Shown here one piece after another: positions 34,260-56,562 of a stretch of DNA of 64,000 bases. The stretch spans positions 512,001 through 576,000 of the forward strand of contig CP084166.1 of assembly GCA_021513695.1 (NCBI GenBank), read 5' to 3'. The stretch's first letter is position 1; the number at the start of each line of letters is the position of its first letter. Made by a program: the position numbers and the translations under genes. The stretch comes from Candidatus Heimdallarchaeum aukensis. Its GTDB lineage: Archaea; Asgardarchaeota; Heimdallarchaeia; Heimdallarchaeales; Heimdallarchaeaceae. The notes beneath the pieces were generated by a model. It saw only the letters and a program-made list of their open reading frames with translations. It was not told where the DNA came from and did not search any database.

Positions 34260-35960
34260 ATGAAAAAAAAAGCGAAAATACTTTTTTTACTAATTGTTTT
34301 CTCAAACTTAGTTTTTGTTTTGGTAACAAATACAAAAAACATTAATGCATTAAAAGAGCCTATTACTAGTGATTCTAATGAATTTCGAGCGTATAGTTTT
34401 GCTGTTCCTTACATGTACACTGATGTTACGATAAAGAAAGATGGCTCGATAGATATTTCTTATACCATTAACTTTACAAATTTTATTTTTGGAAATACTA
34501 TTGACATTATAGATATTGGTTTTCCTAATAAACATTACAATCTTAAAAGTGTTCAAGCTTGGATAGATGGTTATGAGATTACTGATATAAGGGAGAGTGA
34601 ATACATTAGTATAGGAGTAGAGATACATTTAGGTAGTCATTCTATTTTACCTGGTGAGAGCGCTGTATTGGTAGTTAAAGGGAATAATCCTAAAATGGTT
34701 TTTAAAGACGATACCAAAAAAAATTTTGCTAGTTGTGTTTTCAGGCAAACTTGGTTTAGTTCACAATTTGCTTTTGGAGAAACTGAAAGAAGAGTGAGAT
34801 TTTATTTTCCTGAAGATTTAACTGATATGAATGAAGTAGAAAAAAGAGTTTCGGACACTAGTGTAAATTTCACTAGGGAAGCAGATTACGTCGAGTTTAG
34901 CAAAACCAGTACTCCCTATGATAATGATTTTTATGTGGGTGTAGGAATACCTTCTAACTATGTTGATAAAATGTATAGGGAGTTTTGGGTTTATAGATTT
35001 GATGAACTTGTTGCTCAAGCATTGTTTTTCCTTTTCTTCTTTGGATTCTTTGGGATATTTTTCTATGTTTTTTGTATTTATCCCCTAAAAGAAAGAAAAA
35101 GATATCTCCCTCCAACTATAAAGTCGACAGGAGGAGCTGTAAGAATGGGTTTGAAACCTTCCGAAGCAGCTATTATCTTAGAAAAACCTCTTACTCTTGT
35201 AGCTTCTTTAGTTATTTACGAAATGATGTCAGAAGGATTGATTACTGTTAAACAAAAAGAACCCTTAAGATTTAAAGTTGAGATATCTACTAAAGAGAAA
35301 TCCAAATTACCTACTTACCAGAAGCATATTATTAATGGAATTAAGAAAAGAGAAAAATCAGACTTAAAATGGGAAAAGGGAAGTGTTTCTGGTGCTCGAC
35401 CACACGATCCTTTTGACCAAGATTACATAAGAAAAGCGCTTTTATCCTTAATTAGAGAAACAACTATGAAAATGAAAGGGTATAACCTGAAGAAAACAAA
35501 GAAGTACTATAATGAATTAATAGAAAGAGCTTGGCAAGACATGAAAAAAGAAAGACCAGAACTAGAAAATGCTTTCCTATGGATAATGATAGATGAAGAT
35601 TATGACGACAGAATGAAAGATCATTATCATGACTATTATTACCCTTCATGGTATGTTTATCATTATCATACCCATTATTATGGTAGAAATAGAGGAAGAG
35701 GAAGAGATAGGATAACTGGTAGAGAATTAAGAAAATCTGGTTTTAGAAGAACAAAGATAACAGATAGGGGACAGATAATCCCTGGAACAGATTTCAAGCG
35801 AATACAAAAAAATATTGTTAGAAGCCCAAGAAAATTACTTTCGTCAGTAAAATCAAAGACCAGACCTGTTTCTAGCAGCTCGGGAAGAAGTGGAGGGGGA
35901 GGAGGAGGTTGTGCTTGTGCTTGTGCTTGCGCTTGCGCTTGTGCCGGAGGAGGACGATAA
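34260..35960 (+). CDS. Bitopic membrane protein (DUF2207-like layout) with Gly6-(Cys-Ala)6 C-terminal tail
   Basis: A signal peptide and a ~230-aa ectodomain are followed by the TM helix LFFLFFFGFFGIFFYVFCIYPL. The ~300-aa cytoplasmic region contains DHYHDYYYPSWYVYHYHTHYYG, an RG-rich stretch, and ends ...SGRSGGGGGGCACACACACACAGGGR*. Confidence 0.5.
   Translation: MKKKAKILFLLIVFSNLVFVLVTNTKNINALKEPITSDSNEFRAYSFAVPYMYTDVTIKKDGSIDISYTINFTNFIFGNTIDIIDIGFPNKHYNLKSVQAWIDGYEITDIRESEYISIGVEIHLGSHSILPGESAVLVVKGNNPKMVFKDDTKKNFASCVFRQTWFSSQFAFGETERRVRFYFPEDLTDMNEVEKRVSDTSVNFTREADYVEFSKTSTPYDNDFYVGVGIPSNYVDKMYREFWVYRFDELVAQALFFLFFFGFFGIFFYVFCIYPLKERKRYLPPTIKSTGGAVRMGLKPSEAAIILEKPLTLVASLVIYEMMSEGLITVKQKEPLRFKVEISTKEKSKLPTYQKHIINGIKKREKSDLKWEKGSVSGARPHDPFDQDYIRKALLSLIRETTMKMKGYNLKKTKKYYNELIERAWQDMKKERPELENAFLWIMIDEDYDDRMKDHYHDYYYPSWYVYHYHTHYYGRNRGRGRDRITGRELRKSGFRRTKITDRGQIIPGTDFKRIQKNIVRSPRKLLSSVKSKTRPVSSSSGRSGGGGGGCACACACACACAGGGR
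35910..35945 (+). repeat. Imperfect hexanucleotide microsatellite (TGTGCT)3(TGCGCT)2(TGTGCC) encoding (Cys-Ala)6
   Basis: Read directly. It is in frame with the 34260..35960 CDS and is flanked by GGAGGAGG purine runs on both sides. Confidence 0.9.
35946..35954 (+). promoter_or_regulatory. Shine-Dalgarno-like site (GGAGGAGGA) 7 nt upstream of the rSAM gene ATG at 35962
   Basis: Sequence and spacing. The upstream gene's stop codon lies between the SD and the ATG, which suggests translational coupling. Confidence 0.5.
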
Positions 35961-35961
35961 A

Positions 35962-37284
35962 ATGCCAAAAGAAGAAAAAGAAGAACAGAAAAAGATGTTT
36001 CACCTAAGAAACGAAGAAACCTTTACTAGAATGCATTTAAGGAAAGAAAAGAAAGGACAAGGAATACTAATAGTTAACGCCAACAGAATCTTTCACCTAA
36101 ATAAAACAGCAACTCAATTCGTTGAATACATAATAGAAGGAAAAAAAGATGAAGAAATAATAAGAAAAATGGTTAACAAATACAATGTTCACGAATCACA
36201 AATAAGAACAGATCTAATGAATCTGAAGATCGCAATAGAAGATATAGTAAATAAACCAGATATTGACCCGGTACAAGAACTGTTTGACGAAGATATGGAA
36301 ATGGAGAGAATGATTTTTTCAGCTCCATTGAGAATGGACTTGGCTATAACTTACAAATGCAATAACAAATGTGTCAAATGCTACGTTGAAGAAAAAAGAG
36401 AAATAAAAGAATTAACAACAGAAGAATGGAAAAAAGTCTTAGATAAACTGTGGGATATAGGTATTCCCCACGTAACATTTACTGGAGGAGAACCCACAAC
36501 AAGAAAAGATTTAGTGAAACTAGTAGAATACGCAGAAGATATAGGCATAGTAACGGGACTAATAACCAACGGAAGAAACCTGAAAGACAAAAAGTTAGTA
36601 GAAGAACTAGTAGCAGCAGGAATAGATCATTTCCAAATAACAATAGAAAGCCATATACCAGAAGTACATGATAAATTAACAGGAGTAAAAGGATCGTGGG
36701 AAGAAACAGTAGAAGGAATAAAAAACGTTGTACCTACACCAGTGTTTATTATGACAAACACAACTCTAGTTCCAGAAAACATAAAAGAAATAGATAAAAC
36801 AATAGAATTTTTAGCTAAGTTGGGAATAGACCACTTCGCAGCAAACGGAATAATAAAAGCTGGAGGAGGAAAAGATGACTCACTAGACTTAACAGTAGAA
36901 GAACTAAACAAAACACTAGATACAATAATGAAGAAAGCTGAAGAAATGAAAATGAGATTTCTATGGTACTCACCAACAAGATATTGTGAATTTAACCCAG
37001 TAAAGAAAGGACTAGGAGTAAAACAATGTACAGCAGGAAATATAGCAATGGCAATAGAACCAGATGGACAAGTAATACCATGCCAAAGCTACTTTGAACC
37101 ACTAGGAAACATATTAACTACTCCATGGAAAAAAATATGGAACCATAAAACAACAAAAAGAATAAGAAAAAGAAAATACTTGCCCCAAGAATGCAAAGGC
37201 TGCCCAGAAAAAGAAATATGCGGAGGAGGATGCCCTCTAAATTATCAAGCGCCAATAACTGTTTGCAGAGACGCTCTTTCGTAA
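35962..37284 (+). CDS. Radical SAM / SPASM-domain enzyme with N-terminal PqqD-like RRE (RiPP-type maturase)
   Basis: An N-terminal ~90-aa PqqD-like segment (ILIVNANRIFHLNKTATQFVEYIIEGKKDEEIIRKMVNKYNVHESQIRTDLMNLKIAIEDIV) is present. The rSAM motif is CNNKCVKCY (Cx3Cx2C). The SPASM motif is CTAGN...PCQSY...CKGCPEKEICGGGCP (Cx2Cx5Cx3C). Confidence 0.8.
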   Translation: MPKEEKEEQKKMFHLRNEETFTRMHLRKEKKGQGILIVNANRIFHLNKTATQFVEYIIEGKKDEEIIRKMVNKYNVHESQIRTDLMNLKIAIEDIVNKPDIDPVQELFDEDMEMERMIFSAPLRMDLAITYKCNNKCVKCYVEEKREIKELTTEEWKKVLDKLWDIGIPHVTFTGGEPTTRKDLVKLVEYAEDIGIVTGLITNGRNLKDKKLVEELVAAGIDHFQITIESHIPEVHDKLTGVKGSWEETVEGIKNVVPTPVFIMTNTTLVPENIKEIDKTIEFLAKLGIDHFAANGIIKAGGGKDDSLDLTVEELNKTLDTIMKKAEEMKMRFLWYSPTRYCEFNPVKKGLGVKQCTAGNIAMAIEPDGQVIPCQSYFEPLGNILTTPWKKIWNHKTTKRIRKRKYLPQECKGCPEKEICGGGCPLNYQAPITVCRDALS

Positions 37285-37321: not shown

Positions 37322-37639
37322 ACCATTTTTAATAGGATAAGTAAAATTACATCTTTTTTCCTTTTCCTGTTTTTTCCCATTCACTAAACTTATCTATTAG
37401 TTCGTCAATAGCATGTGTTATCTCTTCAGTGATTTTTTCAACAATAATTAATTTGTCATCTTCAATTCGAATAGACAAAATAGAACCGAGTTCAACCAAC
37501 CATAATTCAAGTTCATTAAGATCTTCAAAACCTAATTTTTCCTGTAAAGTAATTAAAGGTATTTTAGAATTATTAGATAGGACTTTGAATAATTTTTAGC
37601 TCTTTCTATTTCAATATCGCGAGAATCAAAATAGTTCAT
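37322..37639 (-). pseudogene. Duplicated 3' tail fragment of the 40618..43875 paralog (frameshifted)
   Basis: About 290 bp is near-identical to 40618..40906. It reads [22 protein letters not shown] and then, in another frame, ...GFEDLNELELWLVELGS.LSIRIEDDKLIIVEKITEEITHAIDELIDKFSEWEKTGKGKK. Its ATG overlaps the TGA of the upstream gene (ATGA). Confidence 0.5.
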
Positions 37640-40335
37640 TTTTTCTTCCCCTTTCCTTTACGTTCCCACTCACTGAACTGTTTGAGTAAATCATCAATAG
37701 CTGTAGTCATATCTTCAGAAACAAATTCGCCCTCAAATTGTAAGTCAAAGATTACTTCGTCTCTTTCGATTCTATTCGGTACATCCTTTGAATAGATGTA
37801 TAACCATAATTTCATAATCTCTATATCTTCAAAATCTAATAATGGAGAAAGCTTATTTAGACTTATTTTGTCGTAAACTAAACTAATTTTCTTAAGACGG
37901 TCAAGTATTTTATTATTAGTTTTTTTATCATTAATTATTTTTGTTAATTCAGACAATGTTCTATTATCTTCATCCAGTATATCTTTAACTATCGTTACTT
38001 TCTTTGTTGCAAAATCAAAAACTTCTGACCAATTATGTGCAAAAGATGGAAATAGTTTCTTAATTGTAGAAAAAGTATCACCTTTAAAAGAGATTATATA
38101 ATTTAAGAATGATAGCAATTTTTTATAACTAGCTATTATAGGCTTAAACTCTTGATCAGACCACTTTTCAATGAGTTTAGTTAACATTTCTTTTTTGAAA
38201 CTTTGTAAATTTGTAAAATTAATAAGATCAACTAAATAATTTATTTTACTGAGAACGGTATTATTTACGAAATAATCTAATTGATCATATGTTTTGTTTA
38301 ATTGTTCTCTTTCTATTTTTCTTAATTTTCTCTTATTTGAGCTGATAAAAAGGTAATCTTTAAGAAATAGTTTCAATTTTTCAAGATATTTTATAATCTC
38401 CTCAATTGAACTAATAAATAATAGTAAGGAAGAAGTGTTTATGAAAATCTTATCAAATTCTTCATTTAATTTAGTTTGCATATTTATTATCCCTGAGAAA
38501 TTTTCTCTTATCCTTAACCTTATTTTGTGTTCATAAACAAAAAAAAGAGGTAGGATAACAGATATAAGAAGTATAAGAGAAAAACATATTTTTTCAATTG
38601 GTTTAAGATAAATACTCTTTTTTAAAGGATTTTTACCATTTTCTATTTCCCAACCATCGAACAAACCGTCATCATCAGTATCAGAATCTAAAGGGTCAGT
38701 TCCAGCTAGATACTCTTCCAAATTAGTTAAACCATCTCCGTCCAGATCTTCTGATGAATCATATAACAAAGGGTTTAATGAATTACATAGTTCCCATCCA
38801 TCAGGTATGCCATCATCATCAGTATCGGGATCATTAGGGTCAGTTCCAGCTTGATATTCTTCTAAATTAGTTAAACTGTCTTTATCTTTGTCAACATAAG
38901 TGTCATTACTCAAAGGATTCAATAAAAATTCTACTTCCCAACTATCAGGTATGCCATCATCATCAGTATCAGAATCTAAAGGGTCAGTAGAATGCAAGGT
39001 CACTTCTTGAAAATCAGATAAGCCATCATCGTCAGTGTCTGAATCTAAAGGGTCAGTACTGTAAATAGTCACTTCTTGAAAATCAGAAAAGCCATCATCG
39101 TCAGTGTCTGAATCTAAAGGGTCAGTACTGTAAATAGTCACTTCATCTCCATCGTTCAAGCTATCATCGTCAGTGTCTGAATCTAAAGGGTCAGTACTGT
39201 AAATAGTCACTTCATCTCCATCGTTCAAGCTATCATCGTCAGTGTCAGAATCCAAAGGGTCAGTAGAATTCTGATACTCTTCTAAATTAGTTAATCCATC
39301 GCTATCTGGGTCTTCTGCAGAATCATCGATAGTAGTGTTTAAACCATTATTTTCTTCCCATTTGTCAAGCATATTATCTTGGTCTAAGTCTACATGCATG
39401 GGATAAGGATCAAAATTGTTAGCTGAACCATCTATAGGATATGGTCCTGTTCCACTCCAGTCATACCAATAGTTACCTGTTGTACCAGAATAAAATTTAT
39501 TGTATGTCCCATAATCACATGCTTGAGAAGAACCACCTAGATTATTTTTTATTAAGAAGTTTTTTACAAATATTTCATTTTTAGAGCTCTCATTTAGATA
39601 TATACCATAAGAATAACTATTTATTATAATATTGGAAGTAAAAGTATTTTTGTTAGAAACATCAAAGAGAATACCATAATTACTACTATTTACAACAGTA
39701 TTTGAAATAAAAGAATTGTTAGAACTACAAGAAAAAAATATGCCATCATAATAACTATTTGTTATAGTATTGGAAGTAAAAGTATTATTAAAACTAGAAT
39801 GAAGAGACATACCATAATTACTACATATCACAGAGTTGAAGGTAAAAGTATTATTGTTACTACAATAGAGGAAAATACCTACATTATAGCTATTTATAGT
39901 ATTATTAAATACAGTTATTGTTCCATCTGCAACAGAATAAATATAAATACCATAAAATGAACTTGAACCGCCCCCTTCAAGATAACAATCTCGAATAAGA
40001 ATATACTTTGTTGTCCCAGATATCTTTATACCATGAGATGTAGAGTCAGTTATACTATAGTTTTCAATGACATAAGGGTTATCTTTTGTCCCAGAACCAG
40101 GAAAAACAGTAAGATCATCATCAGACTCAATAAGAATAGGCGAATGAACTGTATAAACTTTTTTTACAGCTCTAGTTTCATTTGAATTTACACTAGACAT
40201 TGAATCTATTGTTATTTGATTAGATTGTAGAACCATATTTTCCTCTATTTGAGTCGAAAGGTAAACAAAGAAAACTGTAGTTGTTATTAATATTAGTACT
40301 AAACTTAATTGTATATAAGTTGCTATTCTTTTCAT
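37636..40335 (-). CDS. Receptor-like type-I membrane protein: right-handed beta-helix, thrombospondin-type-3-like Ca-binding repeats, TM, conserved cytoplasmic C-terminal module
   Basis: A signal anchor is followed by PbH1-like repeats (NNTFTSNTI..., NNSFISNTV...), ~10 DxDxDG/TSP3-like units ([15 protein letters not shown]) and a TM helix ([19 protein letters not shown]). The cytoplasmic helical region ends ...[21 protein letters not shown]. Confidence 0.65.
38974..39249 (-). repeat. In-frame 69-bp tandem repeat, 4 units (2 identical, plus diverged flanking units), encoding 23-aa TSP3-like repeats
   Basis: Units lie at 38974, 39043, 39112 and 39181. Units 3 and 4 differ by 1 nt. Each encodes [12 protein letters not shown][SG]L[NS]D[GF][DQ]EVTIY. 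Confidence 0.85.
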
Positions 40336-40617
40336 TTTTCAACCCTAGATACTCTAACTCTAAAGTAAATGCTTATTGAACATTTTCAAGATTTTAAATT
40401 TGAGTCACTTAATATTAAACAAAATACTAATTAACTTTTTCTACTAAACTTTGATTAATGTATAATCTGCACACATTAGGATGAAAGAAACTAAACTGTT
40501 TTTAGAGAAAAAATTCAAAATAAATGAACCACATTCAGTTATAACTAAAAAAATTCAGTGATTTTAATTAATATGTATGCTTCACAAAAACAACATGAGA
40601 TTTTCAACATTCTTTTT

Positions 40618-43600
40618 TCATTCTTTTTTACCTTTTCCTGTTTTTTCCCATTCACTAAATTTATCTATTAGTTCGTCAATAGCATGTGTTATCTCTTCAG
40701 TGATTTTTTCAACAATAATTAATTTGTCATCTTCAATTCGAATAGACAAAAAAGAGCCAAGCTCAACCAACCATAATTCAAGTTCATTAAGATCTTCAAA
40801 ACCTAATTTTTCTTGTAAAGTGAATAAAGGTATTTCAGAAGTAGTGGATAAAACCTTGAAGAATTCTTTAGCTCTTTCTATTTCAACATCTCGAGAATCA
40901 AAATAGTTTATTTTTTCTTCTATTTTTTCTTTTAATTCATTGTATTGTTCTATTCCATTGCTGGATAGCTCTCCTACTGTCTCTGTGTTCATAACCCTAC
41001 TATAATTTTCTTTCCAGTTAGCTAATTTTTCGTCAAACTCTTTAAAATATAACTCACTTTCTGTTATTTTTCCTTTTAGAGAATACACAAACAGATTATC
41101 TATTTCTTTTCTTAGCTCTTCTCCTTTTTTATCTAACAATATTAAAGGATAAAGATAAATAAGATCTCGAACTTCTTGTCTCTTATTTTCTATTTCTTGT
41201 AATTCCTCTAACAAGTCTTTTCTTTCTTCATTGGTTATTTGTTTAGAAAGAATTTCAAGTTTAGATTGAAAAAAATCACGAAAACCATCTGTTATCTCTA
41301 ATAACTTTTTTACTTTCTCGTAGTTAATATTAATGTTTAAGTCTTGTTGATTAATTATTTCTTTCTCTATTTCTAAAAATTCATCAAAGGTTTGTTTTTT
41401 GTGTATCTTAATTTGATTAATGTACGCATTTAATTCTTCTTTTGAAATTTGCTCATCAATATTTTTGATTTCATAGATCTTGGAAGAAAGCAAAGCATTT
41501 CGTATATCTATTTTTTCTATCTCTTTGGCATAGATTAAGTACTCATTACTTAATTCTTTGAATTCAAAAAAGACTTTAGCTATCCTTTTATTATAGTTAT
41601 CAAGATCAATTTTTTTATAATCGTTCTTTTGCACATAGCTATTGATCTGTTGCAAATCAGAGAGCAGTTGTTGCTTCTTTTCTAATATTTTATTCAACAA
41701 TAAGATATATTCATCTGTAATTTTTCTTTCTAATTCAGTCTTAATTTGTGATAACTTTTCTATAAAATCATTAATCTCCCTTTTCACTTTTTCAAATTCA
41801 ATAATATTTTTCTTTCCAATTATAACCTTAAATAAATTAAACTTTGAGCGATAAGAACCAATAATATTATCTAATTGTTTAGCACTATTAACCCATTCTT
41901 TAAAATTATCAGGTGAATATGATTGAAGAAGATATTCATCTATTTTTTCCTTAAATTTATTAAATTCCAAAAATTGTTTATTATATTCGTTCTTCAGTTG
42001 GATGATTTTTTCTCTCTGTTTTTTCTTAATTAATAAAATAGTTGTTGTTACGCTTCCTATTACCAAAAAACTCAATAGACAGGAAAGCACAATTTTAATT
42101 TTTTTTGCTCGAGGATTGCTTAATTTATTTAATGGATCACTTCCATAAATGATTATTTCATCATAATCATTAAATTTGTCATCATCTGTGTCATTTTTTG
42201 TTGGATCTGTGTGGTAAGCATATATTTCTTCATAATCAGATAAACCATCTCCATCAGTGTCAGAATCTATGGGATCAGTTAAGAAAACTATAACTTCTTG
42301 ATAATCAGTTAAACCGTCGCTATCTGAGTCTTTCTTATAAGGAAAAGAATGAAATATTTTAACTTCTTCATAATCACTTAATTTATCATCATCAAAATCC
42401 CCATCTCTTATACATCCTCCAAAAATAACTTCATCATAATCATTAAGACCATCACCATCAGTGTCATTGAAATTAGGATTAGCCATCCACTGATATTCTT
42501 CTAAATTTGATAAGCCATCTCCATCAGAATCGGCCTTGGAGTCATCTAAATTATAGACAATTTCCCAAGCATCTTCCATTCCATCAGAATCAGAATCATT
42601 CTCGACAGATGCAACTCGCCTAGGAAAGATATCTCCAATTTTATTTCCATAAATAGAATAAAAATTGGTAGTACCATCCCAATCTTCCCATAAATTGCCA
42701 ACTAGTAAAGTAGGAGAATACCAGTAAGTGTTAGTGCCATAATCTTCATTATTATCTTGAATCTTCAAAAAAGAATTATTGAAGACTATGTTATAATCTC
42801 CTCTTTCACCAATCCTTACTCCCCCTAAACCTGTTCCACAAAAAAGGTTATTATAAATCAAACTGTTACTTACTTCGAAACCATAACTAATAGCAAAATT
42901 AGTTGAATTATAGATATTGTTATTACTAATAACAACGTTATTACATCTTTCTAAATATAATCCATCTGATGTTGCTCCATTTATCAAATTATCAGAGATT
43001 ACAATTTCACTATTACCACTTGACCATAGGCATGAAGCCCAATCATTAGTTGTTTTTTCTAAATTATTGTAAAAGATTTTTATTTTTTTATTATCTCTAA
43101 CTCCAATGCTTCCTGCTCCATTAGTTATACATGTGTTTTTTATAATTGTAACATTTGAAGATTCAGAAACTAAAATACCAAAACCAGAGTTATTGGCAGA
43201 ATAATTATTTTTTATCAAGCTATCTCCAGATTGATGTACCAACACGCCATATTGATTATAAAGAAGAGTACAATTCTCAACTATTACACCACCTGCTCTA
43301 GTTTCAGAAGAAATCCCAACTTCATAACCTTGAATAAAACAATTCCTAATTATTACGAAAGAACTAACATAACGAATAACAATACCACAAGAATTTTCTA
43401 AATACTCAGTATCACCAGTTGAAACTTCATAGTTCTCAATTATATAAGGGTCTGCTTCAGTTCCTGAACCAGGAAACCCAAACTTTACAAAGTCTTCTTC
43501 ACTATTGATTTCTATCGGTGAATGAACAATATAACGTGTTTCTTTAGCATTGTTTCTTTCGGCAATTGCTTTTTGACAAGAACTACCATGGTTTATTTGT

Positions 43601-43875
43601 CTGTAGCTTGAAGTTAAATTATGCTTATCAATTGAGCGATAATTATCATATTCTTTTCCATTCTCTGTTTTATTGTTATTAAATTTAGAAGCCTTTTCAT
43701 CTACATAATTATCTATTAGGTGAAAAGTTGGAGTAAGAAAAAGAAAAATAACTAAAGAAACAATAATTCTTTTATAGTTTGGAAATATATTGTTTAATAT
43801 TTTCATTTCTAGAACAAGTATATACATTACAATAAAAAAATAAAAGTTTTTCTTCACTATTTCTTTTCTTTTCAT
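40618..43875 (-). CDS. Receptor-like type-I membrane protein paralog (beta-helix + TSP3-like repeats + TM + long coiled-coil cytoplasmic region + conserved C-terminal module)
   Basis: Same domain order as 37636..40335. The TM helix is IVLSCLLSFLVIGSVTTTILLI. The C-terminus is ...AIDELIDKFSEWEKTGKGKKE. The true start may be the internal Met of MKILNNIF (signal-like). Confidence 0.65.
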   Translation of the reverse strand: MKRKEIVKKNFYFFIVMYILVLEMKILNNIFPNYKRIIVSLVIFLFLTPTFHLIDNYVDEKASKFNNNKTENGKEYDNYRSIDKHNLTSSYRQINHGSSCQKAIAERNNAKETRYIVHSPIEINSEEDFVKFGFPGSGTEADPYIIENYEVSTGDTEYLENSCGIVIRYVSSFVIIRNCFIQGYEVGISSETRAGGVIVENCTLLYNQYGVLVHQSGDSLIKNNYSANNSGFGILVSESSNVTIIKNTCITNGAGSIGVRDNKKIKIFYNNLEKTTNDWASCLWSSGNSEIVISDNLINGATSDGLYLERCNNVVISNNNIYNSTNFAISYGFEVSNSLIYNNLFCGTGLGGVRIGERGDYNIVFNNSFLKIQDNNEDYGTNTYWYSPTLLVGNLWEDWDGTTNFYSIYGNKIGDIFPRRVASVENDSDSDGMEDAWEIVYNLDDSKADSDGDGLSNLEEYQWMANPNFNDTDGDGLNDYDEVIFGGCIRDGDFDDDKLSDYEEVKIFHSFPYKKDSDSDGLTDYQEVIVFLTDPIDSDTDGDGLSDYEEIYAYHTDPTKNDTDDDKFNDYDEIIIYGSDPLNKLSNPRAKKIKIVLSCLLSFLVIGSVTTTILLIKKKQREKIIQLKNEYNKQFLEFNKFKEKIDEYLLQSYSPDNFKEWVNSAKQLDNIIGSYRSKFNLFKVIIGKKNIIEFEKVKREINDFIEKLSQIKTELERKITDEYILLLNKILEKKQQLLSDLQQINSYVQKNDYKKIDLDNYNKRIAKVFFEFKELSNEYLIYAKEIEKIDIRNALLSSKIYEIKNIDEQISKEELNAYINQIKIHKKQTFDEFLEIEKEIINQQDLNININYEKVKKLLEITDGFRDFFQSKLEILSKQITNEERKDLLEELQEIENKRQEVRDLIYLYPLILLDKKGEELRKEIDNLFVYSLKGKITESELYFKEFDEKLANWKENYSRVMNTETVGELSSNGIEQYNELKEKIEEKINYFDSRDVEIERAKEFFKVLSTTSEIPLFTLQEKLGFEDLNELELWLVELGSFLSIRIEDDKLIIVEKITEEITHAIDELIDKFSEWEKTGKGKKE

Positions 43876-44044
43876 TATTTCATTTTAAAGTAGTTTATTT
43901 ATCAAGTTCAACTTGCATAAAAGAATACAAATAAAACTAATACGAAAAATCGATGAAAAACATAAGATTCACAGAATGGATAAAATAAGACAGAAAAAAA
44001 ATATAATATTTCATATTTTTTTCTAAAAACTAAAATTAGTGAAA

Positions 44045-46010
44045 TTACTTCTTTTTCCCCTTTCCTGTACGCTCCCACTCACTAAACTGTTTAAGCAGAT
44101 CATCTATAGCTTCAGTCATATCTTCTGCCACGAACTCACCCTCAAGTTGTATATCGAACATTACTTCTTCTCCTTCTATCTGATTTGGTAAATCTTTAGA
44201 ATAAGCATATAACCATAGTTTCAAGACCTCTTTGTCTTCAAAGTCTAACAAAGGAGAAAGCTTGGTTAAACTTATTTTATTATAAACAGAACTAACTTTC
44301 TTAAGTCTTTCAAGTCTCATATTATTATTCTCACTATCATTAAATATTTTAGCTAACTCACCTAATAATTGTTCATTTTGTTCTAATAGTTCTTGGACAA
44401 TAACCAATTTTTCAGTAGCTAAATCTTTAATATCAGACCAGAAAGAGTCAGAAGAAGCAAATTTAGTAAAAGCTTTATGATCAATAAAAGCTACAATGTA
44501 ATTTAGGGTTGATAATATCTCTTCATAGCTGATAATTAGAGGTTTGAACTCCTTATCAGACCAATTATAGACAATGTTAGTTAACATTTCTTTAGTGTAA
44601 TCAAACAAATTTTTATAATCAATAAATTCAATTAATGAAACTACTTTATCATGAAGAGAGGAGCTGATAAAAGAGGTTATTTTTTCAAAAATCTTGTTAA
44701 ATTGTTCTTGTTTATTAGTTTTTAATCTTTTGCTGTTAGAATGAACAAAAATTAACTTTTCAAGAAGATTACCTAACTTTTCAAAATAGTCTTTTATCTC
44801 CTCTGCAGAAGAAACGAAAGAAATTAATGAAGAAATTTCTGTAAAAGTTTCCTTATACTTTCCATCTAATTCAGATTGTAAATGAATTACTTTTTCAAAT
44901 TTTTCCTTTACTTTTATTCGCATTATTAATACATGAATGGAGAATGTTACAAGAATAACAAATATAGGAAGTATAGCAAAATAACCTATTTTTTCTACTT
45001 GAGACAAATAAATATTCTTTTTTACAGGATTTTTTCCATTTTCTACTTCCCAACCGTCAAGCATACCATCTCCATCAGTGTCATTGTCCAAGGGGTCAGT
45101 AGAATAGATATGAACTTCTTGACCATCAGTCAGTCCATCTCCGTCACTGTCACTGTCCAAGGGGTCGGTATTGTAAGTATTTATCTCTTCATAGTCATCA
45201 AGTCCATCGTCGTCTGTGTCATTATCTATGGGGTTAGTACCTATTTGATACTCTTCTAAATTGGTCAAACCATCATTATCAAAATCCTCTGTAGAGTCAT
45301 CAATATTTGTGTCCAAGCCATTATCTTCTTCCCATTTGACGGGTATATTATCCTGGTCTAGATCCACATACATAGGATAAGGATCAAAGTTATTAGCGGA
45401 ACCATCTATTGGATATACTCCTGTTCCATTCCAGTCATACCAATAGTTCCCTGTTGACCCAGAATAAAACTTATTGTTTGTTCCCTCATCATACGCTTGT
45501 GAAGAACCACCTAAATTATTTTTAATTATGATGTTTTCCATAAAACTATTATTAGAGTATAACGGAGTCTTATACCATAAGAATTACTATTAGCTATAGT
45601 TTTAGAGCTAAAAATATTGTAAGAACTATTAAGAATATATACACCAATATAGCTACTGTTTGCTATGGTGTTAGAGGTAAAAATGTTATAAAAACTATAG
45701 CCTAGTTATATATTGTAGATACCACCATTTGTTATAATATTATTTATAAAAATATTATTAGAACTAGAACCGAGACTAATACAACACCAATCATTATTTA
45801 TAATTGTATTAAAAATAAAGTTGTTATTAGAACTATAACCTATTCGTATACCGTAATAACTAACAGTAATATTATTGAAAAAGAATGTGTTATTAGAGCT
45901 ATATTGAAGATTTATACCACTGGTAATTATATTTGTTATTTTATTAGAAATAAATGTATTATTAAAACTAGTTTCAATCCAAATACCATAATTCTTATTA
46001 TTTCTTTAGT
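44045..46010 (-). pseudogene. Third receptor-like paralog, 5' beta-helix region decayed
   Basis: The ORF 44045..45541 encodes only the TSP3 + TM + cytoplasmic part (..[21 protein letters not shown]). The stretch 45541..~46010 is recognisably homologous at the DNA level to the beta-helix region of 37636..40335 but is riddled with stops. Confidence 0.5.
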
Positions 46011-46272: not shown

Positions 46273-47061
46273 TCAAAGGTTGTTTAATAATTTGTTTAGA
46301 GTTAATCTAATTTCTGAACGAGTTTTATTATCAGGAATAAGAAAAGAGACTTTTACTCCATTACTTTTATTATAAAACATATCTGCTACTTCACGTAAAT
46401 TATTCTTAATTTCAATTAATTCCTCAGGAATTGGACTACTTTTAGGCAATTGTTCTACTTTTGCTTGATAAATGTCAAATAATACCGAATACAATATTTC
46501 GGTAGTAAAATAATATTTTTCATAATGAGAGTTTTTCCAATCCTCTTCTTTTAGATTTTTTTCTTTTATATGTTTGATTCCTTTATATTTTTTCCCACTC
46601 GCTAGCTCTTCAAGATAATAATGAGATTTTGCATGTTTTAAATACTTACCCTTGATAGGTGATTCTTTTTTAAATTCAGTAACATCAAGATGAAACGAGT
46701 ACGTAACTTTTTTCTCTGTATCATACTTTATAGGCCTTTCTAATAAAGAATAAAATATTACAAAAATTAATTTCGCTAATAATTTTGTATCACAGTCATT
46801 CTCATTTATTTCCTGTTCTATTCGCTCAAAAACTCCAAATCTTTCTAGTAGATAGATTTTATCTTCATTATTGAACAAAAATGTAACTAATTCTAAAATT
46901 ATATACTCTTTGTCATCACTATCAGAAGAAAAAGTGAAAAGATCTTTAAACTCATCAAAAACCTTTAGACGAAAGAGATAATCAAGATCACTGTTCTTAG
47001 CTGCGTATTTAACTGTTTCAAAGTAAAACATATTTATTATCACAAAACCAACAATGTTCAC
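46273..47061 (-). pseudogene. 3' (C-terminal) half of a ~514-aa gene split by IS481-like insertion
   Basis: Translation continues in frame from the upstream fragment across the 16-bp duplicated target (..FVGFVI|INMFYFETVKY..). Confidence 0.6.
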
Positions 47062-48065
47062 TCAATAGACCTGGGTTACACTTTTGGGTACTAGAGAAAC
47101 ATAGGGGTGATTCATAAATTTTTCTCCAGGAGTAAGGAGGTTAAGAGACTGGTGAGGACGGCTAAAATTGTAGTATGAGCGGTAGAAGGAGAGGTCGGAG
47201 TTACAGTAGGTTAGTCCTAGTCTTTTCATCTCACGGATAATGGTTCCATGTAGTCTTTCTACTTTTCCACATGTTTCGGGGTGAAAAACTCTAGATCTTA
47301 TGTGCTTTATTCCCTCTGTTTGACACCAACGGGAGAAGGTACTTGTTCCCCCTCTAACGGAGTAGAATAGTGCTCCATTGTCTGTGAGAATAGACTCGGG
47401 GTATCCATATTTTTCTACTGCTTCTTCTAACAGACTTATTATCTGCTCTTTTTTCGGTGCGAAAGGGTGGAGTTTAGCTCCCAGGCAGAATCGTGAGTGG
47501 TCGTCTATTAGAGTTATGAGATAAAGGTGTTGTCCTTGTTCTTCTACCCAGAAAGGTCCTTTCACATCTATCTGCCAGAGTTCGTTAGGGGATGAGCGCT
47601 CAAAACTCTTGTATTGAGTAATGTTTCTCTTTTTTCTATTACTCCACAGAGGAAGACCTAACTCCCCTATTACTTTAACTACTGTGTTTCGCGATAGTGC
47701 TCTTCCTTCTTTCTTCAACAGATAAACTATCTTCTCCACGTTCATTCCTTGCTTTACTCTTAACTCCCTTATCCTCTCTCTTAACTCCTCATTCACTTTC
47801 CTGTGTATAGTTTTAGGTCTAGATGATCTATCCTTCCACCATTCTCCTTCAGGGTTCTCCTTAAACCTTTTCAACCACTTATATACAAACTTCCTACTCA
47901 CCATATACCTGTGAGCTACCTCTTTTATCTTCTCTCCTTCCAAAGCTTTTTTAACCACAATCTTTCTTAGTCTCTCTAGGTTACGTTTGGGTTTGTTCAT
48001 AATTCGTCACTTACCCTCGTAACCCACTTTCTATTTATTTGTTACCAACGTGGGTAGAGTAAACA
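47055..48065 (-). mobile_element. IS481-family-like insertion sequence flanked by 16-bp direct repeat ATCACAAAACCAACAA
   Basis: The direct repeat lies at 47039..47054 and 48066..48081. The ends begin TGTTCACTC / TGTTTACTC (inverted). A single rve-type transposase lies inside. Confidence 0.65.
47062..48000 (-). CDS. IS481-family DDE (rve integrase-core) transposase
   Basis: N-terminal HTH; WQIDVKGPF, LITLIDDHSRF, ILTDNGALF, HPETCGKVERLH and YNFSRPHQSL are seen. The protein is 312 aa. Confidence 0.75.
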   Translation of the reverse strand: MNKPKRNLERLRKIVVKKALEGEKIKEVAHRYMVSRKFVYKWLKRFKENPEGEWWKDRSSRPKTIHRKVNEELRERIRELRVKQGMNVEKIVYLLKKEGRALSRNTVVKVIGELGLPLWSNRKKRNITQYKSFERSSPNELWQIDVKGPFWVEEQGQHLYLITLIDDHSRFCLGAKLHPFAPKKEQIISLLEEAVEKYGYPESILTDNGALFYSVRGGTSTFSRWCQTEGIKHIRSRVFHPETCGKVERLHGTIIREMKRLGLTYCNSDLSFYRSYYNFSRPHQSLNLLTPGEKFMNHPYVSLVPKSVTQVY

Positions 48066-48826
48066 ATCACAAAACCAACAAAGAAAGAAATAATAAATAT
48101 TAAAAAAATTGTTTCACCATCTGCAAAATTGGTGATAAAAGCATAACTGATACAAAATATCAAACTAAGAATATTTATTCCAATTTTGTAGTCATCTCCT
48201 AAAATCTGTAAATCTAAAGGTTTGTTTGCTACTTCCAAGTCTGAAACCTTGAAAAAACTTTGTAACAAAATAATGAAATATAACACATATACACCATTAT
48301 AAAACCAAGCAAACTTTGTTATTTTACTGGAACTTGCTCCTATTACAGCAGTAATATATTTTGGATCAAGAAATGATAAGAAAAAAGGAATTGCTATAAA
48401 AAATAACGAAAGGGGAAAATAATAGATTAAGATTAAAGCTCTATTATAAAGCGATATTTTTGATTTAACAATGCTATACGAAAGAAGATAGTTTTTTATT
48501 TTCTTTAGATATTCTCCGTCAATATTATTTTCTCTTTGCTCTCTTGTTTCAATATCCTTCTTAATCTCATTAATAGTTTTTTTAGTTGATACCAAGTATT
48601 TTACAATTCTTATTAAGAAAACAATTAAAAGTAAGGTCACAACCAAATTGATAATAAAAAATGTAGTAATTAAAAATGTAGAAAAACTCTTTTGAGACGC
48701 GAAAATGGAATACTTTATGCTGAAGAAAGAATTGACTAAAAAAGCAGTAAAAAGAATAACTACGATATTAGTGACTATATATGGTTTTATCTTTAAATAG
48801 TACCTTTCTAACAAGGTACTATACAT
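48035..48826 (-). pseudogene. 5' (N-terminal, polytopic membrane) half of the gene split by the IS481-like element
   Basis: The last 9 codons (VYSTHVGNK*) are encoded by the IS end. The codons before them match the target duplication. Confidence 0.6.
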
Positions 48827-48875
48827 AAATAATTTTCTCGCTTAATTATTTTTAAACTTTTAGTGATTAAAAATC

Positions 48876-49651
48876 GGTAGTGTCTAGTTTTCTTCCGACA
48901 AAAATATTTGTGGGGACTCTAATAGTACGATATGAACATTCAAAAACTATCTACTCTTTTTAAGAGATGCAGAGTCCCCAAAAAGATAATAATAAAAGCT
49001 ATTTATGAATATATTGGTTCAAAGAATGGTTTGAGGACATAGCATTGAAGAATGGTTTAACACACCAAACATTATGGTATTGGGTAAAGAAGTTCAGGCT
49101 CTTTAGGGAAAGTTTACATAGAATTGTAGCAGAGAGAGGGGAATACCTGAGATTATAGTAGTAGATGAAACAGAGATTAAGACCTCTCAAGGCTCAATGT
49201 ATCTGTGGTTCGCATTAGATCCTTCCTTACAACAAGACTTTACTGGGTTTTAGTATTACTAAGGGACGGAGTAATCTTGAATGTTTACTAACTTTCCGTT
49301 ATTGGTTCTGGTTCAAATGTTGGTATGGGGTTTTAAGCCTCGTATTGTCGTTACAGATGCAGGGGTATGGTATCCTGTCTTACTTCGTCTCGGTATCAAA
49401 ATCTCCGTTATCAAAGGTGGTTTACGCTCCTATATTGAACTTTTTAATGCCACCCTTAAGAGTTATCGTTGGTTTCATTCTATTCTCCACTGCACTTGTC
49501 CTATCCGTGCTGTCTATGGCTCTACTCATCTTTCTGGTTTCCTTACTCTCTTTATGTTCTATTATAATTTTATTCGTCCTCATCAGAGTTTAGGACATCC
49601 TCCCCTTAGTTCCTTTTTACCTAGGAGGCGGTATAAAAACTAGACACTACC
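48876..49651 (+). mobile_element. IS6-family-like insertion sequence, decayed copy 2
   Basis: The same 16-bp TIRs lie at 48876..48891 and 49636..49651. A 9-bp direct repeat TTAAAAATC flanks the copy. The transposase is broken by several indels (only a 120-aa ORF remains at 49281..49643). Confidence 0.65.
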
Positions 49652-49712
49652 TTAAAAATCAACATTAATGCTTGTAAATAGAGAAAAAAAGAAAAAATAT
49701 GTAAGTCGTCAT

Positions 49713-50723
49713 TTATTGTTTCTTTCTTGCCATTAATTGTGTAGAAATACAAATAAAGAAAATAAGTAATATGTATATGTTTAGAAAAGAAGTTTTCGCA
49801 GTATCATCTCCATAATTGTTTATTCCTAAATAGTTTTCATTCTTCCATCCAGCTAAAGTCGCCCAAAACCACCAAGCAGAATAAGCTTTAAGATTAGCAT
49901 TTAAAGGTTGGGAATGAGCTGAAGCACAATTATACCATTCTATTCCTTCTTCATGTTTATTTTGCCATTCAATAGCCCAATTACCTGAATGTGTTCCATT
50001 ATTCCAACTACAATCATCACTTACATTTTTGTCTCCATAATAGTTTCCATCGGGATCATAAGATTCTATATCTGCAAAGTCATATAGTACTTTATTATTC
50101 TCTTTGCAGAATTCTCTTATTTGCTCGTTCCTTTGATGTAAGTTTCCTTCTAAACCTGTTCCATCAGTGTGACCAGTCATATAGACAAAAATCACGTCAG
50201 GAAACTCTTGTTCGAGAATACTCATAGGTGTTAGATAGTGGTTAACTAGTTCTTCTTCCGACATCCAGCTCAGTTGACCACACCAACTCCACATTATGAC
50301 ATTCACATCTTTATTGTTCATATCTTGTAAAAAGGCTCTTGTAGCATTAGACCATTGAGAATAACCTGCATCAGCTGCTTGACTTGGATCAGGAGCATAG
50401 CTTGCTATAGTATTATCTTCTAGAAAAGAGGAATTGTAAGAAAAGAGTCCTTGAGTTCCTCCATTTGCTTCCTTAAAGGAAGGCAAATCAGACATACCTG
50501 TAATAATTTGCGAACCGTGACTGGTGTGCTGATAAGCTATGTGCAATTTATTCTTTGCTTCAATAATTGCTTCATCTGGAATTTGGTTCAATCTAACTAG
50601 ATTAGCTATTGAATGATCAGCTATTATTTGTGCAGTGTTTGTACTGCCAGAAACAAAATTTCCAGTTCTAACAATAAATGGAAGCAAATTAATAAAGCAT
50701 GTCCAAAAATTCTTTTTCACCAA
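49713..50723 (-). CDS. Secreted hypothetical protein with C-terminal TM anchor; 5' end overlapped by IS5-like copy 2
   Basis: The C-terminus reads ILLIFFICISTQLMARKKQ. The first ~9 codons (MVKKNFWTC) are supplied by the IS terminal repeat. Confidence 0.4.
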   Translation of the reverse strand: MVKKNFWTCFINLLPFIVRTGNFVSGSTNTAQIIADHSIANLVRLNQIPDEAIIEAKNKLHIAYQHTSHGSQIITGMSDLPSFKEANGGTQGLFSYNSSFLEDNTIASYAPDPSQAADAGYSQWSNATRAFLQDMNNKDVNVIMWSWCGQLSWMSEEELVNHYLTPMSILEQEFPDVIFVYMTGHTDGTGLEGNLHQRNEQIREFCKENNKVLYDFADIESYDPDGNYYGDKNVSDDCSWNNGTHSGNWAIEWQNKHEEGIEWYNCASAHSQPLNANLKAYSAWWFWATLAGWKNENYLGINNYGDDTAKTSFLNIYILLIFFICISTQLMARKKQ

Positions 50724-51700
50724 CTATACAGTCCGAAGGAGTAAAAGGTAGTTGTAACAGAGGAGAGAACTATAAAGAGTAGAAAGAATGGTGGAGGGTA
50801 AGTGATCAAGGATTGGGGGAAGAGAGAGTTTGAGGAGACCAAAGACGTGTTCAATACTACTACGATACTCGGGGTGATGATTATGGCGATAGAGACCAGG
50901 GTAGAGACGATGAGCTTGAACTATTGATCCGAGAGGAGGAGAGGGATAACGAGCATTACTTTTTGGGGGAATAACAGGGAAAAAGGAATGTTGTCTAAGA
51001 AGACCGACGATATTTTCTGTCCAGTTGGCACAGTCTCCATAAAATCTCAAGAGCGGTCTCAAGAGTGCAGAAGGAAGTTTCTGCCATAGTAAACCGAAGA
51101 CTTTACTATCGTGAGTGTTACTAGCAGAATGAGCTAAAGAGATTATAGCTCTGGAGGGTAAACCAACTATAAGGTGTATCTTCCAGAAAAGTTTAGTTTG
51201 GAGGTTTTCTTTAGTCCTCCTCTTGCCCACTTGAGAAAACGCCAAACAGAAGCTTGACGGATTTTAAACCCTGAACTATCCACCGCCATAGCTTTCAACC
51301 CTTTTTTTTTCACTATTTCCCCACCTAAGTTTATTATCCACCGCTCTAAAATTTTACTTTCTGTCGCTCTCCACACTGCATGAAAAGTAGATTTGGAAGG
51401 AATCTTCTTCATCCACCCCTCTTCTATCAAAAAATCGCATAGAGACAACTTTTCCTCTAACTTCCTCCAAGCAATTCCTTCTATTCTAGCAATGATCGCT
51501 AAAGCCAGTATCACCCACCTTTCTGCTATTCTTTTTCTCCCTCTCTTACTTTCTCTCGGTTCCTCTTTCACCAGTTTCTTAAGGAAAGGTTCATTAATGA
51601 TTATGAATTCTCTTGCTTTGTGGAGGTCTATGATCTGAAAGAAACTCATACTTCCGACATAAACCCCCACATTAATAAAAATTAATTTTTGGACATGCTT
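50695..51700 (-). mobile_element. IS5-family-like insertion sequence, copy 2 (apparently intact, orfA/orfB)
   Basis: There are 17-bp terminal inverted repeats AAGCATGTCCAAAAATT (50695..50711) and AATTTTTGGACATGCTT (51684..51700). OrfA is 51167..51670 (-). OrfB is 50724..51245 (-) in the -1 frame, overlapping by 79 nt. Confidence 0.65.
50724..51670 (-). CDS. IS5-family transposase OrfA + OrfB (requires -1 frameshift for fusion)
   Basis: AVDSSGF lies in OrfA. YGDCANW and ..EHVFGLLK.. lie in OrfB. The frameshift position is conserved in copy 1. Confidence 0.6.
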
Positions 51701-56077: not shown

Positions 56078-56221
56078 CCTTTTTCACCTTTTTTACGATA
56101 AATTACATAAGTACTCTATTAAGTCTTCGACATCTATACATCCGTACCCTACTCTATAGGAATAATAAGTAGAATAAGTGCCTAGGTTATTTATTGGTTC
56201 TCCAACTTTATCCCAGTGTAG

Positions 56222-56557
56222 TTAATAATAGGAACCGATATTTCTACCACTAGGATCATTCTCGCATGAATAATCAAGACATGCTCCGAAATCTTGATAC
56301 GTTAAAGGATGAGCAGGATCAAGATGATAGTGCATACGTGAAGCTAAATAAGCAGTTACAGCTACTTGAGGTGCAGACATGCTGGTTCCAGTAGCAATAA
56401 TATTTTCCACCACTCCATCATTATCCAAATCGCTCTTCATTTCCACTTTAAATGATGGAGATACACAATCAACAGTCGCTTCACTCAACCCATGATCTTG
56501 CCAAAACAGACTACCAACATACGCACCATCAGTGTTTGGAGAATAGGTGAAAGACAT
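56222..56557 (-). pseudogene. Subtilisin-like (peptidase S8) C-terminal fragment
   Basis: GTSMSAPQVAVTAYL is the S8 catalytic-Ser motif. No upstream Asp/His regions are present. The reading frame is cut at 56557. Confidence 0.55.
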
Positions 56558-56562
56558 TCTAC

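Follow-up and report, generated by a model that had tools for sequence, protein, structure and literature searches.

We lean towards reading a tandem gene array in the window (the whole 64,000-nucleotide stretch of Candidatus Heimdallarchaeum aukensis DNA analysed here) as a birth-and-death family of variable type-I surface proteins, in which a PCI-type C-terminal tail would most plausibly serve protein docking. The family may comprise adhesin- or receptor-like cell-surface proteins of this Heimdallarchaeum species. Outside the cell, a carbohydrate-binding/CASH-type right-handed beta-helix would bind ligands and be kept off the membrane by a stalk of TSP3 calcium-binding repeats that varies in repeat number; inside, the transmembrane (TM) helix would be followed by a helical spacer of 200–380 residues, a PCI-type winged helix, an amphipathic helix and a Gly-Lys tail.

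Gene copies in the array

The initial annotation described a head-to-tail array on the minus strand with two intact paralogs and one decayed copy, and the open reading frames (ORFs) bear this out. Paralog A (37636..40335 (−), 899 aa) and paralog B (40618..43875 (−), 1085 aa) are intact according to the ORF list, Pfam and hydropathy, and a protein identical to paralog A is encoded on metagenome contig L006. Copy 3 survives as a 498-codon ORF (44045..45541 (−)) that lacks a signal anchor and retains the cap end of the beta-helix, TSP3 repeats, a TM helix and an A-type spacer and tail. Its decayed beta-helix repeats (45542..46010 (−)) lie upstream in a different frame, where they resume at 45565..45993 with one in-frame stop and one frameshift, and carry the 69-nt repeat families D2/D4. 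Given these lesions and the absence of the gene's 5′ end (the first ~150 codons, signal anchor included), copy 3 is a pseudogene or truncated gene. An IS transposase (rve/HTH, 312 aa; 47062..48000 (−)) is found close to the array's upstream end, with an unannotated 262-aa ORF (46273..47061) between it and copy 3.

A distant beta-helix and TM-anchor fragment (56563..57276 (+)) had been listed as a further copy. It is no recent copy and falls outside the tandem family proper: the fragment is 5′-truncated, shares 29–35% identity with the family and is preceded, four codons before its ATG, by an in-frame stop. FG-GAP repeats, TSP3 repeats and a TM helix occur together in a neighbouring gene (59043..61805).

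Protein architecture and topology

From N to C terminus, the family plan consists of a signal anchor, a NosD-type beta-helix, TSP3 repeats, one TM helix, a helical spacer and a conserved module. In paralog A, the signal anchor spans aa 8–26, the beta-helix ~aa 99–295 and the TSP3 repeats ~aa 316–560. Hydropathy places the TM helix at aa 583–601 in paralog A (38533..38589 (−)), aa 595–613 in paralog B (42037..42093 (−)) and aa 188–206 in the copy 3 ORF (44924..44980 (−)). Pfam NosD/Beta_helix and TSP3_bac exceed their gathering scores in paralogs A and B, as does TSP3_bac in the 498-aa ORF. The NosD (PF05048) and Beta_helix (PF13229) scores (62.7/61.6 bits for A and 65.6/55.9 bits for B) indicate domain-level membership only, and both paralogs score far under the family cut-off of NCBIfam NosD_copper_fam. 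TSP3 (PF18884) scores 70–73 bits in all three ORFs, which contain 18, 9 and 8 D.D.D motif starts, and the repeats have a 69-bp periodicity; in paralog A, units of 69 bp (23 codons) have recently expanded to 4.7 copies with 90% matches (38944..39265 (−)). The spacer (380 aa and charged in paralog B) is predicted to be entirely helical, at low confidence (pLDDT ~50, from a single sequence). The C-terminal module occupies aa 808–899 of paralog A (37639..37914 (−); winged helix, C-terminal helix and GKGKKK tail), with a B-type PCI winged-helix tail in paralog B (40621..40896 (−)) and an A-type tail in copy 3 (44048..44323 (−)).

The Pfam domains, N-terminal signal anchor and single internal TM helix agree with the type-I receptor-like architecture proposed at the outset. 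The module is probably cytoplasmic, as had also been suggested, because the proteins have a signal anchor and one TM helix and because TM-less LRR, TPR and UEV proteins share the module.

The ectodomain resembles those of bacterial TSP3 adhesins (Myxococcus CglD and MtsD; Amuc_1099 family), which likewise carry TSP3 calcium-binding arrays. Matches to the corresponding NCBIfam families are weak (49 bits versus a cut-off of 400) and cover the repeats only, and these adhesins are lipoproteins or outer-membrane proteins that, unlike the window paralogs, have no cytoplasmic module. A calcium-dependent ectodomain, a single TM helix and a cytoplasmic docking tail also make up type-I adhesion receptors of eukaryotes (integrin- or thrombospondin-like), a likeness by analogy only: the tails are not homologous, and no cytoskeletal partner is known.

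The beta-helix could instead belong to membrane-anchored extracellular polysaccharide-active enzymes of the lyase or epimerase type, with a cytoplasmic part that serves mainly as an anchor or surface-layer spacing element and has no role in signalling or docking. Public records name relatives 'right-handed parallel beta-helix repeat-containing protein' or 'probable pectate lyase C', and in the PDB there is similarity to the AlgG epimerase and DFA-IIIase beta-helices, but it is weak (E ~0.01) and no catalytic motif was identified. A cytoplasmic region of 300–470 residues, most constrained at its end, also far exceeds the needs of an anchor, and non-enzymatic and soluble proteins bear the same tail. 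We consider enzymes of this kind unlikely.

A C-terminal winged helix of probable PCI type

AlphaFold2 (AF2) predicts the module as a canonical winged helix (pLDDT >90) with the topology H1-b1-H2-H3-b2-b3, which superposes on PCI subunits; the best sequence and fold matches are the PCI subunits eIF3a, CSN7 and Rpn12. The prediction agrees with the winged-helix guess of the initial annotation and points to a PCI-type fold. Among 63 module sequences, Pfam matches fall on PCI (37, counted at E ≤ 1; best, 4.7e-7), CSN8_PSD8_EIF3K (13) and Paf67 (12), with single matches only to other winged-helix families. Two relatives, P0025 (22.9 bits) and P0068 (27.2 bits), exceed the PCI gathering score within the region that the family profile matches. 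Within the window, the best module is that of the 498-aa ORF (13.4 bits against PF01399; cut-off, 22), and paralogs A and B have no Pfam PCI match; the PCI link of the window modules is transitive, running through these relatives and the predicted fold. The winged helix is followed by a predicted amphipathic helix (residues 68–86, pLDDT ~60) with hydrophobic residues at i, i+3/4, i+7 and i+10. A profile of the A-type cytoplasmic region had no significant match in the PDB (eIF3a at E 0.075), and neither structure prediction nor the PDB profile search revealed a PCI-type helical-repeat subdomain in the spacer.

The module is conserved among the copies (identity of 77% between A and copy 3 and 42% between A and B) and far beyond this genome: a HMMER profile recovered 89 cluster representatives, 20 of them at E ≤ 1e-10, and all named matches are Heimdallarchaeial. 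On local HMM re-scanning, 69 of 91 module stretches touched the very C terminus of the protein. Within these 69 sequences, the Lys of a GK dipeptide lies at position −3 in 44 and −2 in 15, so that the Gly-Lys tail stops 1–2 residues short of the end. The module is found on TM proteins with LVIVD, FG-GAP/PQQ-like, DUF285 and Bmp ectodomains, on soluble LRR, TPR and UEV proteins, and also on RING-like and UFL1-like architectures. It is the segment of the gene under the strongest purifying selection, with dN/dS of 0.06–0.24 compared with 0.27–0.32 for the ectodomain and 0.39–0.44 for the spacer; the ectodomain showed no sign of positive selection (dN/dS ~0.3).

These properties bear on an earlier suggestion, namely that the proteins are membrane-tethered nucleic-acid-binding factors which contact DNA or RNA through the winged helix and the Lys-rich tail, possibly once freed from the membrane. 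Both the winged-helix core and the helix after it are acidic (mean net charge, −3.6 and −4.0), and the sequence turns basic only over its last ~8 residues; conserved Trp and Leu, not basic or polar residues, prevail in helix 3; similarity is specific to PCI families and not to DNA-binding winged-helix–turn–helix (wHTH) families; and neither a protease site nor a means of release is apparent. We regard this suggestion as very improbable. Assignment as a DNA-binding wHTH regulator (MarR/ArsR-like or a membrane-tethered activator) was likewise rejected on core charge, helix 3 composition and the isolated nature of such matches. Together, the acidity and the strongest purifying selection speak against a nucleic-acid binder and favour protein docking or oligomerization, which is probably the role of the module. 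PCI winged helices and their C-terminal helices oligomerize in the proteasome lid, the COP9 signalosome (CSN) and eIF3, and the tail could similarly drive lateral homo- or hetero-oligomerization, or alternatively recruit a common cytoplasmic partner. Because many Heimdallarchaeial proteins with no other relationship have this tail, it resembles a common adaptor, which would tie surface proteins to one intracellular system.

Relation to PCI scaffolds and ubiquitin-like systems

In eukaryotes, the proteasome lid, CSN and eIF3 are assembled through the PCI winged-helix fold. The module can be likened to the winged-helix subdomain of their PCI subunits (Rpn12, Rpn5, CSN7, CSN3 and eIF3 a/k; PF01399, PF10075), but it is prokaryotic, has no demonstrable N-terminal helical-repeat subdomain, ends single-pass membrane proteins or assorted other domains, and adds a conserved GxGK tail at the extreme C terminus. 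No PCI/MPN complex is known in this case. DDRGK1 (UFBP1), anchored in the endoplasmic reticulum (ER) membrane, is a PCI-like winged-helix adaptor for UFL1, the E3 ligase of UFM1; unlike the window paralogs, it has an N-terminal anchor and no ectodomain, and it shares 10% identity with the module in structural alignment. No DDRGK match occurs among the Pfam families listed for the 63 module sequences, and identification as a DDRGK1/UFBP1-type adaptor (N-terminal anchor, DDRGK motif region and UFL1-pairing winged helix) was rejected.

A further parallel is provided by archaeal membrane Ser/Thr kinases of ESCRT loci and Asgard ESCRT-linked multidomain proteins, which are membrane-associated like the window paralogs and have small PCI-like winged-helix domains at their C termini; Makarova et al. 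2024 (PMC10936438) proposed that these domains serve oligomerization or bind winged-helix ESCRT proteins. Their N-terminal parts are kinase, Ig-like or adaptin-like rather than beta-helix/TSP3, and the window array lies outside any ESCRT locus. An Asgard origin has been inferred for UFL1 and DDRGK1 (PMC10183829).

The intracellular system served by the tail is possibly ubiquitin-like/ESCRT machinery. Module fusions (UEV, RING-like and UFL1-like) and one neighbourhood, in which ThiF, JAB and a UFC1-like E2 sit immediately upstream of a family array (one contig only), point weakly to a ubiquitin-like link. The tail might then be chiefly a sorting or turnover signal, read by Asgard ubiquitin/UFM1-like or ESCRT machinery that recognizes the winged helix and the Lys 2–3 residues from the C terminus, or modifies this Lys, and thereby controls the abundance or vesicular sorting of surface proteins. 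The neighbourhood is a single instance, and the window ORFs that were scanned against Pfam include no ubiquitin-like operon near the array; no sequence similarity to UFM1 was detected for the 87-aa ORF; the RING-like matches on module proteins fall under Pfam cut-offs; and fusions denote association, not mechanism. We therefore view a predominant sorting function as doubtful. Equally tentative is a broader proposal, in which the eukaryotic PCI scaffold had its prokaryotic forerunner in this tail. In Heimdallarchaeia, the tail would be a transferable C-terminal docking unit that lets surface receptors co-assemble beneath the membrane with ubiquitin-like (Ubl) components such as UEV, RING-like and UFL1-like proteins and the JAB/UFC1-like neighbours. 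If true, Ubl conjugation or ESCRT-type sorting would have been tied to surface sensing or adhesion before the DDRGK1–UFL1 complex, the proteasome lid, CSN and eIF3 arose.

Evolution of the locus

The syntenic locus of Candidatus Heimdallarchaeum endolithica contains at least eight paralogs, and the IS of the window array (88% amino acid identity) is present twice within it. From 36797 to ~41800, the window and contig L006 are 100% identical; upstream of ~42200, identity drops to 65–94%, a switch that spans the TM-coding segment (L006 is possibly a chimeric assembly). Between segments of one gene pair, dS differs several-fold, and copy 3 has its membrane-proximal ectodomain nearest to A (73%) and its spacer nearest to e1_1023 (68% versus 40%). 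These patterns support mosaic histories of gene segments, alongside the duplication and decay recognized from the start.

Abutting the paralog A stop is a frameshifted remnant that corresponds to the final ~97 codons of a B-type paralog (37350..37640 (−)) and had been noted as a 290-bp copy and taken as evidence of tail exchange. The similarity is real: 275 of 299 bases are identical to the 3′ end of paralog B (40621..40920), with one 1-nt indel, far beyond chance, and 13 of the 24 differences are derived in the remnant. It does not speak for a tail exchange, since paralog A keeps its own A-type tail and stop intact. Homology begins within an 11-nt microhomology (GAAGAAAAAAT) that overlaps the paralog A stop codon, and such microhomology is typical of illegitimate deletion or duplication junctions; at the other boundary, homology ends at the stop codon. 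In H. endolithica, a B gene directly follows the best-matching A gene. Because of the intact A tail, the microhomology at the stop and this A-then-B order, the remnant is best read as a deletion stump, the leftover 3′ end of a lost fourth, B-type paralog.

Less probable, though still credible, is that the segment stems from ectopic gene conversion, or that a duplicated 3′ piece of paralog B was inserted, as a tail exchange in progress. The remnant matches the resident B gene better (92%) than it does either B ortholog of H. endolithica (86–87%) and therefore arose or was homogenized within this lineage, and the segment mosaicism elsewhere shows active recombination; against it stand the complete A-type tail, the microhomology junction, the gene order of the sister species and the end of homology at the stop codon. 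Besides tandem duplication, the locus undergoes IS-associated rearrangement, expansion of repeats and recombination that breaks near the TM-coding segment; on the deletion reading, a microhomology-mediated loss left the 3′ stump. The ectodomain evolves faster than the tail.

Implications

Even read conservatively, the locus clearly illustrates how archaeal surface proteins undergo birth-and-death evolution and diversify their ectodomains. PCI scaffolds and the membrane-anchored DDRGK1–UFL1 ligase are eukaryotic hallmarks with poorly defined prokaryotic roots. Here, in the archaea most closely related to eukaryotes, a strongly constrained C-terminal module of a PCI-type winged helix and following helix is common to many proteins, including an expanding receptor-like surface protein family. 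Should the tail be a shared docking unit, it would offer a testable handle on how Asgard cell surfaces are linked to ubiquitin-like or sorting machinery and on the origins of PCI assemblies.

Gene array and protein architecture

The minus strand of the window carries a head-to-tail run of three ORFs, which encode the paralogs A (37636..40335, 899 aa), B (40618..43875, 1085 aa) and C (44045..45541, 498 aa). Pfam matches above gathering score were obtained for NosD, Beta_helix and TSP3_bac repeats in A and B and for TSP3_bac in C; within A, 69-bp TSP3 units have multiplied recently. By hydropathy, a single strong internal transmembrane (TM) helix is present in A (583-601), B (595-613) and C (188-206), preceded in A and B by a signal anchor at the N terminus. 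The part of the protein before the TM helix is acidic, has only 4-8% Lys/Arg and contains every cysteine; beyond the helix, Lys/Arg content rises to 14-17% and cysteine is absent. From this composition, the domain types and the signal anchor we infer a type-I topology, with the N terminus outside and the C terminus inside; local charge counts on either side of the helix (+1 vs +1 to +4) gave no guidance from the positive-inside rule. The initial annotation's description of tandem paralogs with a shared architecture and a conserved tail is confirmed. Public annotation of family members gives nothing beyond 'right-handed parallel beta-helix repeat-containing protein', and our literature search found no paper describing the C-terminal module or the beta-helix/TSP3/PCI-tail family. 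A single-sequence AF2 model of the whole cytoplasmic region was too low in quality for use, and a profile of the A-type cytoplasmic region gave no significant match to PDB sequences.

A locus in flux

Among species-representative genomes, a pattern search recovered relatives in Candidatus Heimdallarchaeum endolithica PR6 alone (CP084167.1, 609-643 kb). Scanning metagenome and viral contig collections by pattern yielded none, and the diverse alignment varied too much to be used for scanning loci. The genes flanking the array are 94% (radical-SAM gene) and 86% (566-aa gene) identical to those of H. endolithica, indicating a syntenic locus in a sister species. The H. endolithica array comprises seven intact paralogs and the start of an eighth over ~34 kb, and holds two copies of the insertion sequence whose transposase is encoded at 47062..48000 in the window. 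A-type tails are 71-87% identical to one another and B-type tails 84-100% among their closest members (B2 subgroup, 63-70%), with ~40% identity between the two types. The adjacency of A and B in the window and in H. endolithica had raised the possibility of obligatory A-type/B-type pairing, which was rejected given an array with A-type tails only on the metagenome contig L007.

Beside the stop codon of A lies a frameshifted 3' remnant (37350..37640) that corresponds to the final ~97 codons of B, with 275/299 positions matching and one frame-shifting 1-nt indel. Its homology to B starts within GAAGAAAAAAT, which forms the end of A (…GKKK-stop) and is also present within B (…EEKIN…); the junction contains the stop codon of A, and the other homology limit is the remnant's own stop codon. 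The 24 differences from B comprise 13 derived in the remnant, 5 derived in B and 6 that are ambiguous, and the remnant is 92% identical to B as against 86-87% to the two H. endolithica B orthologs. In H. endolithica, e2_1065 (the best match of A) is directly followed by e2_1063 (the best match of B). On these alignments the remnant is best read as the stump of a fourth, B-type paralog that would have been mostly lost through microhomology-mediated deletion, although it may instead be an inserted copy of a fragment. The tail exchange that had been proposed at 37322..37639 did not occur, as A's own tail is untouched.

Paralog C is a pseudogene or truncated gene. Upstream of its ORF, beta-helix repeats continue at 45565..45993 in a different frame with one stop and one frameshift, and C is without its first ~150 codons, signal anchor included. 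Its counterpart on the metagenome contig L006 is broken otherwise, an N-terminal ORF of 834 aa being separated from a C-terminal one, so the decay of this copy looks independent in two close lineages.

The gene segments also differ in history. Identity between L006 and the window is 100% over 5 kb, from 36797 to ~41800, and drops abruptly to a patchy 65-94% upstream of ~42200, across the ectodomain of B and all of C; the TM-coding segment of B (42037..42093) lies within the switch, which reflects either allelic replacement of the ectodomain at strain level or a chimeric assembly. B and its L006 allele show a dS of 0.30 across the ectodomain and of 0.005 across the spacer (the cytoplasmic region between TM helix and module); for B and e2_1063 the values are 0.45 (ectodomain), 0.08 (spacer) and 0.31 (module). 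The membrane-proximal ectodomain of C is nearest to A (73%), and its spacer is nearest to that of the comparison paralog e1_1023 (68% vs 40%). Segment-wise dS, the identity switch and the mosaic structure of C all support the general idea of exchange between paralogs. Positive selection was not evident in the ectodomain (dN/dS ~0.3).

Neighbouring features

Two regions of the window (47062..51670 and 56080..57276) form a zone of mobile-element and gene debris. They contain an rve transposase (47062..48000, 312 aa), DDE_Tnp_1 fragments (50724..51670) and a subtilase-like fragment with a GTSMSAP motif (56222..56557, minus strand), which adjoins a 5'-truncated beta-helix fragment. The minus-strand gene at 57917..58981 encodes a caspase/legumain-like (Peptidase_C14/C13) protein that has a hydrophobic segment at its N terminus and is possibly a metacaspase-like protease, either secreted or at the surface. 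The 920-aa product of 59043..61805 (plus strand), 13 kb from the array, has an integrin-like architecture: it combines FG-GAP beta-propeller repeats with TSP3 repeats and TM segments, and its cytoplasmic region lacks the PCI-type tail. At 21960..22523 (minus strand) lies the gene for a small GTPase of the Arf family (Pfam Arf, 162 bits), one of the eukaryotic signature proteins typical of Asgard archaea.

In the 34260..37284 region, the 566-aa membrane protein has a Cys-rich C terminus, GGGGGG-CACACACACA-GGGR, whose coding sequence contains a (TGTGCT/TGCGCT) repeat at ~35909..35944. No more than two bases separate the stop codon of its gene from an ATG at 35962, which falls within ORF 35890..37284 as listed; this ORF encodes a radical-SAM/SPASM enzyme that has a PqqD-like domain. 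The gene pair is kept in H. endolithica (86% and 94% identity), and the enzyme looks like a RiPP-style maturase that would act on the Cys-rich tail.

A conserved PCI-type module

An exhaustive HMMER profile search of 1.84 billion representatives with the last ~100 residues matched 89 proteins (20 with E<=1e-10); word-indexed protein searches using the module returned just 2 and 5 matches. All eight matches named by organism at NCBI belong to Heimdallarchaeota or Heimdallarchaeaceae. Local HMM re-scanning placed the module at the very C terminus in 69 of 91 module stretches, the remainder being the leading copy of a tandem, modules with zinc fingers after them or modules with a few trailing residues. 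The consensus reads R…L.KI…Y..I.L..LA.LL.F.D…LE.WL..L……I.G..VI……AID.LL..F…E..G.GK, and several relatives are Ala/Arg-rich.

Among 63 modules, Pfam matches were to PCI (37/63, best 4.7e-7), CSN8_PSD8_EIF3K (13) and Paf67 (eIF3l; 12), with only isolated single matches to DNA-binding wHTH families. Two proteins, P0025 and P0068, pass the PCI gathering score on the exact stretch matched by the module profile. The window's own modules fall below the Pfam PCI threshold, which marks them as putative divergent members. AF2 with the 63-sequence alignment predicted a canonical winged helix (pLDDT >90), after which come a linker and a further helix (pLDDT ~60). Fold alone discriminates only narrowly; fold and family-specific sequence similarity together support assignment of the winged helix to the PCI type.

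Carriers with a TM helix have LVIVD, PQQ/FG-GAP-like, DUF285 or Bmp ectodomains, and soluble carriers include LRR and TPR proteins. The module is fused to a UEV domain in P0025 and sits on a multi-pass membrane protein with UFL1-like winged-helix repeats in P0048; P0085 and P0089 are small TM proteins that combine it with a RING-like zinc finger below Pfam cut-offs. Archaeal membrane kinases encoded in ESCRT loci have been reported to carry PCI-like domains at the C terminus (PMC10936438).

A possible ubiquitin-like link

On L007 (JGI 3300033148 contig Ga0366832_1003043), an operon-like run at 7047..9850 encodes a ThiF E1, a JAB/MPN peptidase, an 87-aa ORF ending in RGIVG and a UFC1-like E2 (Pfam 25.6 bits vs a cut-off of 25; best PDB matches UFC1, E 0.01); a large array of beta-helix/TSP3/PCI-tail genes lies directly downstream on the same strand. 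The RGIVG end suggested a UFM1-like protein, an assignment rejected after phmmer against PDB gave no detectable UFM1 match; the ORF is a possible Ubl. Ufm1 homologues have been reported in Asgard archaea (PMC12962969), as has an Asgard origin of UFL1 and DDRGK1 (PMC10183829). No ubiquitin-like operon was found beside the window array among the window ORFs scanned against Pfam, so the adjacency seen on L007 stays a lead.

Function of the module

Within the gene, dN/dS is lowest for the module (0.06-0.24). Both the winged-helix core (net charge -3.6) and the helix that follows (-4.0) are acidic, with only the last eight residues basic, and the last helix has one hydrophobic face (I, L, L, F, W). 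A conserved Gly-Lys pair places Lys at -3 in 44/69 proteins and at -2 in 15/69, so its distance to the free C terminus seems to matter; a dilysine (KKXX-like) retrieval signal was set aside as a general explanation of the tail, many carriers being soluble. The initial annotation's view is partly right: it holds for the receptor-like type-I architecture, the conserved winged helix in the cytoplasm and the locus in flux, though not for the tail exchange or the suggested role as a nucleic-acid-binding factor. The latter is unlikely, being disfavoured by the acidic core, the PCI-type similarity and the scarcity of DNA-binding wHTH matches; acidic core, constraint and hydrophobic helix face argue instead for a protein interface. 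PCI winged helices and C-terminal helices form such interfaces in the lid, CSN and eIF3 (PMC10936438). For the family as a whole we infer function from these features, and the module is most likely a docking or oligomerisation unit common to many Heimdallarchaeial proteins.
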